Shown: positions 22,645 to 22,965 of the stretch, in pieces
Position numbering within the stretch: the stretch's first letter is position 1
Layout of the letters: every line of letters begins with the position of its first letter
From: a virus
Taxonomy: Duplodnaviria; Caudoviricetes
IMG/VR virus record: IMGVR_UViG_3300013121_000023
Coordinates: 32,001 to 96,000 of that record
Reading direction: 5' to 3' (one strand)
DNA length: 64,000 nt
The notes under the pieces: generated by a model
What the model saw: the letters and a program-made list of their open reading frames with translations, nothing else
What the model was told of the DNA's origin: nothing
Database searches by the model: none
Program-made: the position numbers and the translations under genes

Positions 22645-22965
22645 TAAAAAGAAAGATTGGTTTGTTCTATGCGGTGACAAAAAAAAACGCTTGCATGACT
22701 GGTAGTGGTTCGCGCGCACCACCACCAGCCTCTCAATCACACTGTACTAGCTGTGACTGATTCGAACGGCCGCAAGCATTTGCCGTCCTACACCTGCTAC
22801 TAACGAACGGACCTACAGGTATTGGTCCGTTCCCGACTTAGCTCGTCAGTCTCGTCGGGTAGACTGACTGTCCTGATGACTTTTACAGTCATCTGCAATC
22901 TCGGTCAGATAAAATTGACCTTTTCAGGCTCGGACATGCCCTAGGATGGAACTTCCTTCCACCAT
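22645..22965 (-). ncRNA. Candidate structured ncRNA with three serial pseudoknots
   Basis: Own promoter (22970-22993) and TTTTTAGCTAC end (22640-22650); no substantial ORF; nested stems with G-U pairs on the minus strand. Confidence 0.7.

Follow-up and report, generated by a model that had tools for sequence, protein, structure and literature searches.

A segment on the minus strand of an uncultured phage genome very probably specifies a stand-alone structured non-coding RNA. The genome is a record of 177,132 bp with direct terminal repeats, and the window analysed here is the 64,000-nt stretch corresponding to record bases 32001-96000. Two compact H-type pseudoknots of this RNA, PK-A and PK-B, probably form, whereas a series of three, completed by PK-C, is plausible and statistically unusual and, as a model, has to be regarded as likely but unproven. 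A function as decoy or scaffold is the mechanism that we favour, though less likely than not, and the whole statement, i.e. a stand-alone knotted RNA together with its proposed mechanism, is put forward tentatively as possible rather than probable. An initial annotation of this DNA had described the locus as a novel stand-alone phage ncRNA, and this description is supported, with a promoter, a terminator-like end, no ORF, a strand-specific fold and no match in Rfam.

Only a small number of stand-alone structured RNAs are recorded from phages, and a function has been assigned to hardly any of them. If true, a transcript of about 285 nt with a stacked row of pseudoknots at its core would be a new RNA architecture in bacteriophages, and its small size makes it tractable for chemical probing, cryo-EM and pull-downs. 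Candidate roles include an anti-defence decoy, a nuclease-resistant scaffold, a self-assembling particle and a translation modifier. In addition, the order of elements at the boundary (terminator, TTTAGCTAC, promoter) suggests how the phage shuffles accessory modules.

Genomic setting and coding potential

The locus lies amid co-oriented small accessory genes without recognisable families, and the flanking proteins belong to no Pfam or PHROG family. The RNA is numbered here from window position 22968 (nt 1) to 22680 (nt 289) on the minus strand. Open frames across this stretch do not exceed 46 codons on either strand with the standard code, and allowing read-through of any single stop codon gave no convincing gene, in agreement with the earlier view that the stretch has only one short ORF. 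The sole short frame, an AUG ORF at 22937-22905, lies inside the junction helices and is not preceded by a convincing ribosome-binding site; it comprises 10 sense codons from the AUG at 22937 and not the 12-13 codons first reported. The protein encoded downstream (116 aa, 22231-22581, minus strand) contains an Arg-rich segment, RRGRRGRTRH, followed by a hydrophobic tail; it is family-less, and a protein-atlas lookup gave no usable match for it.

The features of the locus are collected in Table 1.

Table 1. Predicted elements of the RNA locus (window coordinates; nt, position in the RNA)
Feature	Window position	Strand	Description
Upstream promoter element	22989-22996	minus	AAAAAATA; AAAAWA part of the bipartite motif
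Promoter core	22969-22975	minus	TATAAGA, followed by conserved nnnWTG, with ATG at 22965-22963
HP1, 5' hairpin	22945-22963	minus	GGUGGAA/UUCCAUC, 7 bp, nt 6-12/18-24; loop GGAAG
Multi-helix junction	22869-22936	minus	Closing stem UGUCC/GGACA, nt 33-37/96-100
Junction arms	within 22936-22869	minus	GGUCA/UGACC, nt 49-53/62-66; GAUGACU/AGUCAUC, nt 76-82/88-94
PK-A	22832-22868	minus	S1 8 bp, nt 101-108/117-124; S2 CCCGAC/GUCGGG, nt 110-115/132-137
PK-B	22790-22832	minus	S1 9 bp, nt 137-145/156-164; S2 AUACCUGU/GCAGGUGU, nt 147-154/172-179
PK-C	22685-22788	minus	S1 GGACGGC/GCCGUUC, 7 bp, nt 181-187/199-205; encloses H4 and H5
PK-C S2		minus	nt 188-198/274-284; 11-nt loop pairs with UGCAAGCGUUU, 11 bp
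H4	22733-22760	minus	UCAGUCACA/UGUGAUUGA, nt 209-217/228-236
H5	22697-22730	minus	13 bp, nt 239-251/260-272; pair probability 0.99
U9 tract	22679-22687	minus	Adjoins the PK-C long-range helix on its 3' side; candidate 3' end by intrinsic termination
CTTTCTTTTTAGCTAC	22640-22655	minus	Second U-run; alternative 3' end and cassette boundary; could pair with GGAAGGAAG of the 5' end
Upstream CTTTCTTTTTAGCTAC copy	23008-23023	minus	Forms the tail of the neighbouring ncRNA's terminator hairpin; cassette 5' boundary

Transcription signals and cassette boundaries

The bipartite motif AAAAWA-N11-16-HATAAGA has 5 copies in the window compared with 0.14 expected, with minus-strand sites at 22996-22969, 25229-25202, 25722-25697 and 33643-33619 and one plus-strand site at 54922-54947. 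The first of these copies, with a spacing of 13 nt between AAAAAATA and TATAAGA, is located immediately 5' of HP1, and the earlier claim that the RNA has its own promoter is supported by a phage-type motif that lies directly upstream and is enriched in the window. Genome-wide, at least 17 (C/A/T)ATAAGA sites have an A-rich element 11-16 nt upstream and WTG 3-4 nt downstream; promoters of this type precede early and accessory genes, the tRNA cluster and other ncRNAs. Judging from the position of this motif, transcription probably starts at about 22965-22963. A 1.2-kb contig of a related strain (L004, Logan SRR8926550) has its first base at the equivalent of window position 22968, one base past the ATAAGA core, and spans the RNA plus the next two genes; its start is only suggestive with respect to the RNA start.

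At the other end, the 11-bp helix of PK-C is followed at once by the U9 tract, at which transcription may terminate. A simple terminator scan made no call at this site because the helix encloses 75 nt, a span that is unusual for a terminator. The initial annotation had given the RNA a single 3' end; the TTTTTAGCTAC motif at 22650-22640 is indeed present, but the U9 tract at 22687-22679, upstream of it, provides a second candidate end. In the minimum free energy (MFE) structure of the longer, 325-nt version, the purine-rich 5' end is closed against the 3' end.

The 16-mer CTTTCTTTTTAGCTAC forms a direct repeat on both sides of the RNA cassette. TTTAGCTAC has 27 exact copies in the 177-kb genome, compared with about 1.35 expected from the genome size; most of them directly follow a terminator hairpin and lie 17-31 nt ahead of the next promoter. 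TTTAGCTAC might mark sites of termination or processing, or else boundaries at which accessory cassettes recombine.

Predicted structure

All helices named in the initial annotation were recovered on the minus strand at the positions given for them by exact string search, and all 94 proposed pairs are standard in all copies of the RNA. Nine of these 94 pairs are G-U, which bears out the earlier remark that several plus-strand mismatches become G-U pairs on the minus strand and fits the better folding of that strand. The MFE of the minus strand is about -118 to -123 kcal/mol (z-scores of -5.26, -5.38 and -6.27 against shuffles), whereas that of the plus strand is -94 kcal/mol (z-score -3.96), i.e. 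24 kcal/mol worse.

In the nested ensemble, the mean pair probability of HP1 is 0.90 and that of both junction arms is 0.99; a four-way variant of the junction, with a GAAA-tetraloop hairpin, is also possible. The junction closing stem is outcompeted by a long-range helix and has a probability of 0 in this ensemble. This helix, the nested alternative, pairs nt 30-44 with nt 173-187 and excludes the junction stem, PK-B S2 and PK-C S1, and nested thermodynamics alone favours it over those three. The two junction loops had been proposed to kiss; they are complementary, but over just 5 weak, A/U-rich pairs.

PK-A (S2 of 5-6 bp, L1 A, L2 G, L3 GAGCUAA) contains no G-U pairs, and PK-B (S2 of 8 bp, L1 A, L2 A, L3 GUUAGUA) contains two. 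They lie back to back, G22832 being common to PK-A S2 and PK-B S1. S1 and S2 of PK-A each have a probability of about 0.45 in the nested ensemble, indicating two equally strong helices that are mutually exclusive unless pseudoknotted. In PK-C, S2 has a probability of 0.92 in the nested ensemble; since PK-C is drawn with zero-length L1 and L2, the full 11-bp S2 is sterically unlikely, and a shorter helix of about 8 bp, leaving AAA as L1, is a more realistic version. As the linkers between PK-A, PK-B and PK-C are of 0-1 nt, the six stems can stack, which would give a rod of about 45 bp.

Compact H-type pseudoknots were enumerated under four limits: minimum stem lengths of 7 bp (S1) and 6 bp (S2), and maximum lengths of 14 nt for the loop and 12 nt for L3. 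The locus contains 4 such candidates; among 2000 dinucleotide shuffles, 62 had at least 2, 12 had at least 3 and 1 had at least 4. The whole genome yielded 375 candidates on both strands, and a count of 4 is attained in only about 0.3% of 300-nt windows. A 1/1/7 loop geometry is seen in just two of the 375, PK-A and PK-B, which also have the fewest wobble pairs (0 and 2). Their like geometry and unlike helix sequences would fit duplication with structure-preserving divergence, or selection for shape. The pseudoknot model can be decomposed into layers of -102.3 and -25.9 kcal/mol, compared with -118.2 kcal/mol for the nested minimum; with S2 duplex energies of about -9.5 to -13 kcal/mol and the usual pseudoknot penalties, the knotted model is competitive with the nested minimum.

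Several further sequence relationships were observed. GCAGGUGU (22797-22790) has two possible partners, AUACCUGU (22822-22815) and AUGCUUGC (22779-22772) in the PK-C loop, and a CCGUUCG strand is common to PK-B S1 and PK-C S1; the alternative pairing and the common strand may point to alternative conformers or to an origin of the modules by duplication. The 10-nt loop of H4, GCUAGUACAG (22751-22742), holds CUAG and GUAC, and the loop of H5, GCGCGCGA (22717-22710), contains a 6-nt GC palindrome. By their sequence, these loop palindromes could mediate homodimer kissing contacts.

Strain comparison and homologue searches

Three near-identical strain copies of the RNA (L002, L003 and L004) were recovered via protein-cluster look-ups. 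Over 289 nt, L002 differs from the reference by 5 substitutions, all of them transitions, none of which breaks a proposed helix: two are in loops, one converts G182-U204 to A-U in PK-C S1, and two together form a compensatory change of A217-U228 to G-C in H4. L003 has one loop change in common with L002 as well as single-base deletions in the CCC of PK-A S2a and in the U-run (U8). The earlier claim of a structured RNA is supported in that the natural variants among these three strains are compatible with the fold. The changes in L002 make the competing nested fold 5.2 kcal/mol less favourable, mainly because G182A would create an A-C mismatch with C36, while both layers of the pseudoknot model are slightly stabilised. 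Since no natural variant tests any S2 helix, the pseudoknots remain unproven.

A covariation check among homologues had been proposed in the initial annotation. The changes fit the helices, but the covariation score was matched by 169 of 500 shuffles and is not significant, because the alignment contains only three distinct sequences that are more than 98% identical; it supports the model and is too shallow for statistics. The RNA differs by 1.7% in substitutions, compared with divergence patches of 15-25% in the two genes just downstream, where they are found in the 5' part of the 116-aa gene and in the next gene.

Homologues outside this lineage, which is very sparsely sampled, were sought at the nucleotide and protein levels. 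A blastn search of 50,697 phage records ('distant' mode) gave no match to the RNA, and exact and purine/pyrimidine-degenerate DNA patterns returned nothing from viral_contigs, metagenome_contigs and genome_contigs. With the downstream protein, a conserved 410-aa protein and an AAA ATPase as anchors, viral_contigs yielded no close relatives; the sequences nearest to the 410-aa protein share 31% identity with it. The members of a local paralogue family diverge too much for their alignment to serve in a locus scan, and the family profile, compared with 1.84 billion representatives, found only the phage's own lineage. A covariance model of the RNA (R1) detected only the RNA itself in the window and nothing else in 56 kb of ATPase-related phage contigs. 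Two contigs of a distantly related lineage have a gene-free gap of about 750 nt after a homologue of the AAA ATPase (45% identity; L007 2788-3536 and L008 2341-3089), and R1 had no match in these gaps. A divergent strain (L011, JGI sample 3300028804; 83% amino-acid identity in one paralogue) is represented by a 1.1-kb contig that stops short of the RNA. Searches of the phage's own genome for paralogues or antisense targets yielded chance-level 10-13-mers alone.

Proposed mechanism and alternative interpretations

The RNA would be transcribed independently, from the phage-specific bipartite promoter (AAAAAATA, 13 nt, TATAAGA), as a non-coding molecule of about 285 nt, or of about 325 nt if transcription continues to the second U-run. 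It is predicted to consist, in order, of the 5' hairpin, the multi-helix junction and three H-type pseudoknots, the last of which would carry H4 and H5 in its long loop, and the closing helix of PK-C together with U9 would double as the terminator. The product may act in trans as a long-lived RNA, its stacked rod resisting nucleases and helicases and offering a specific binding surface. A protein might thereby be bound or sequestered; a host factor involved in RNA binding or defence is the likeliest target, and a phage partner the alternative.

The locus might instead be a cis element, either the leader or insulating terminator of the adjacent gene of 116-122 aa or the 3' half of a long transcript shared with the upstream ncRNA. 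The spacing is compatible with this, as the next gene lies 40-80 nt downstream and the upstream ncRNA about 45 nt away, and so are the two U-runs in succession and the continuity of contig L004 from 22968 into the next two genes. However, a complete promoter of the same type, at 22609, separates the RNA from the downstream gene, a canonical terminator hairpin ends the upstream ncRNA before the RNA, and the RNA has a full promoter of its own; a cis-acting role is therefore improbable. It is still less probable, and indeed very improbable, that the segment is a non-functional spacer or decayed remnant with a fortuitous structure. Homologues were seen solely in one phage lineage and the comparative evidence is statistically non-significant, but z-scores near -6, a full promoter and terminator, and two perfect pseudoknots of matched geometry argue against it, as do substitutions that leave every helix intact next to genes with patches of up to about 25% divergence.

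The RNA could also assemble by itself, its palindromic and complementary loops producing an RNA-only homo-oligomeric particle with the pseudoknot rod as a strut. The GC palindrome (6 nt) of the H5 loop GCGCGCGA, CUAG and GUAC in the H4 loop and the 5-nt complementarity of the two junction loops would be suited to this, and ROOL, GOLLD and OLE, which are frequent in phages and prophages, offer a precedent for homo-oligomer formation (PMC12286853). Yet the loop palindromes are short and were noted post hoc, the RNA is much smaller than ROOL and GOLLD and the comparison with Rfam was negative, and no significant loop-loop complementarity with the neighbouring upstream ncRNA was found, whole-molecule duplex folding with that ncRNA being uninformative; we consider self-assembly unlikely.

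A translation-related mimic is a further reading, in which a tmRNA-like or tRNA-like RNA contacts ribosomes or tRNA-handling enzymes, perhaps in connection with UUA. Both tmRNA and the region upstream of plant-virus tRNA-like structures contain serial pseudoknots. The junction loops contain UUA and UAA triplets, and the phage encodes 10 tRNAs (ARAGORN; genome positions 123406-126253 and 135413-135485), including one with a CUA anticodon, an amber-reading suppressor, as well as Leu(CAA) and Leu(UAG), but no tRNA-Leu(UAA). The RNA also carries a T-loop consensus, GUUCGAAUC, at 22767-22759; this exact tRNA consensus (GTTCGAATC) has one other non-tRNA copy in the genome, attributable to chance. 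Reading the 9-mer as part of a T-arm was rejected, for it overlaps and clashes with PK-C S1 and H4, both of which are backed by variants. With no tRNA, tmRNA or tRNA-like structure detected by ARAGORN and Rfam and no acceptor-like end with CCA, such mimicry is very improbable. A broader class of effector RNA, with rod and loops leading to an RNA-only multimer or to docking on ribosomes or tRNA enzymes for host takeover, conceivably in UUA decoding, is likewise very unlikely.

Comparison with known RNA families and systems

The initial annotation had suggested an Infernal comparison with Rfam, and since this returned no family match the claim of novelty is kept. At gathering thresholds, no family of Rfam 15 matched in the window, including ROOL, GOLLD, OLE, raiA, pRNA and tmRNA, and at E values of up to 10 there were chance-level matches alone, such as GcvB at 18 bits (cutoff 42) on the wrong strand. 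ARAGORN found 0 tRNA or tmRNA genes in the window.

Two analogies drawn at the outset, with tmRNA and with ToxI-type antitoxins, did not survive comparison with the defining parts of these systems (domain, tag, repeats and toxin gene). In tmRNA, a stable RNA of about 300-360 nt, serial pseudoknots (PK2-PK4) are preceded by a short frame, and the predicted fold of the phage RNA resembles it in this; but the phage RNA has no tRNA-like domain, CCA end or resume-codon tag, and both ARAGORN and Rfam were negative. ToxI and phage pseudo-ToxI have serial pseudoknot units of about 36-43 nt and provide a precedent for RNA-based anti-defence in phages. Units of ToxI are near-identical tandem repeats of about 34-45 nt, whereas PK-A and PK-B are alike in geometry and not in sequence: Tandem Repeats Finder returned 0 rows at a minimum score of 30. 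There is also no adjacent gene for a ToxN/AbiQ-type endoribonuclease, the flanking proteins being family-less.

As early phage RNA with a junction bearing two mutually complementary loops, the pRNA of phi29 is similar; however, phi29 is a protein-primed phage, whereas the present phage is large, with a sheathed tail and direct terminal repeats. A phi29-type pRNA was rejected on the negative Rfam result and on a junction-loop complementarity of only 5 A/U-rich pairs. ROOL, GOLLD and OLE share with this RNA a stand-alone, ornate, phage-associated character and possibly loop-mediated self-association, but they are 2-3 times larger and have their own Rfam models, which had no match here.

For the individual knots, the sterics of the predicted PK-A and PK-B have a precedent in the pseudoknot of T2 gene 32 (PDB 2TPK), whose loops 1 and 2 are of 1 and 7 nt, respectively. 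Like PK-A and PK-B as modelled, the T2/T4 knot is of compact H-type geometry, with one A in loop 1 and 7 nt in the loop that crosses stem 1. The gene 32 knot stands alone, at the 5' terminus of the leader of an autoregulated mRNA, while the phage RNA would have two or three in series in a non-coding cassette. The structure 2TPK is named in PMC5684407.

In the architecture of its modelled fold, the phage RNA comes closest to tobamovirus 3' UTRs with their stalk of stacked pseudoknots. No tRNA-like structure was found after the pseudoknot series of the phage RNA by ARAGORN or Rfam. The upstream pseudoknot domain (UPD) of TMV consists of three consecutive H-type pseudoknots with minimal linkers, stackable into a quasi-continuous rod. 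The TMV stalk belongs to the 3' UTR of an mRNA and genome, precedes an aminoacylatable tRNA-like end and has stems of 3-6 bp, whereas the phage RNA is predicted to be a separate transcript, with stems of 6-11 bp and a U-tract at its 3' end.
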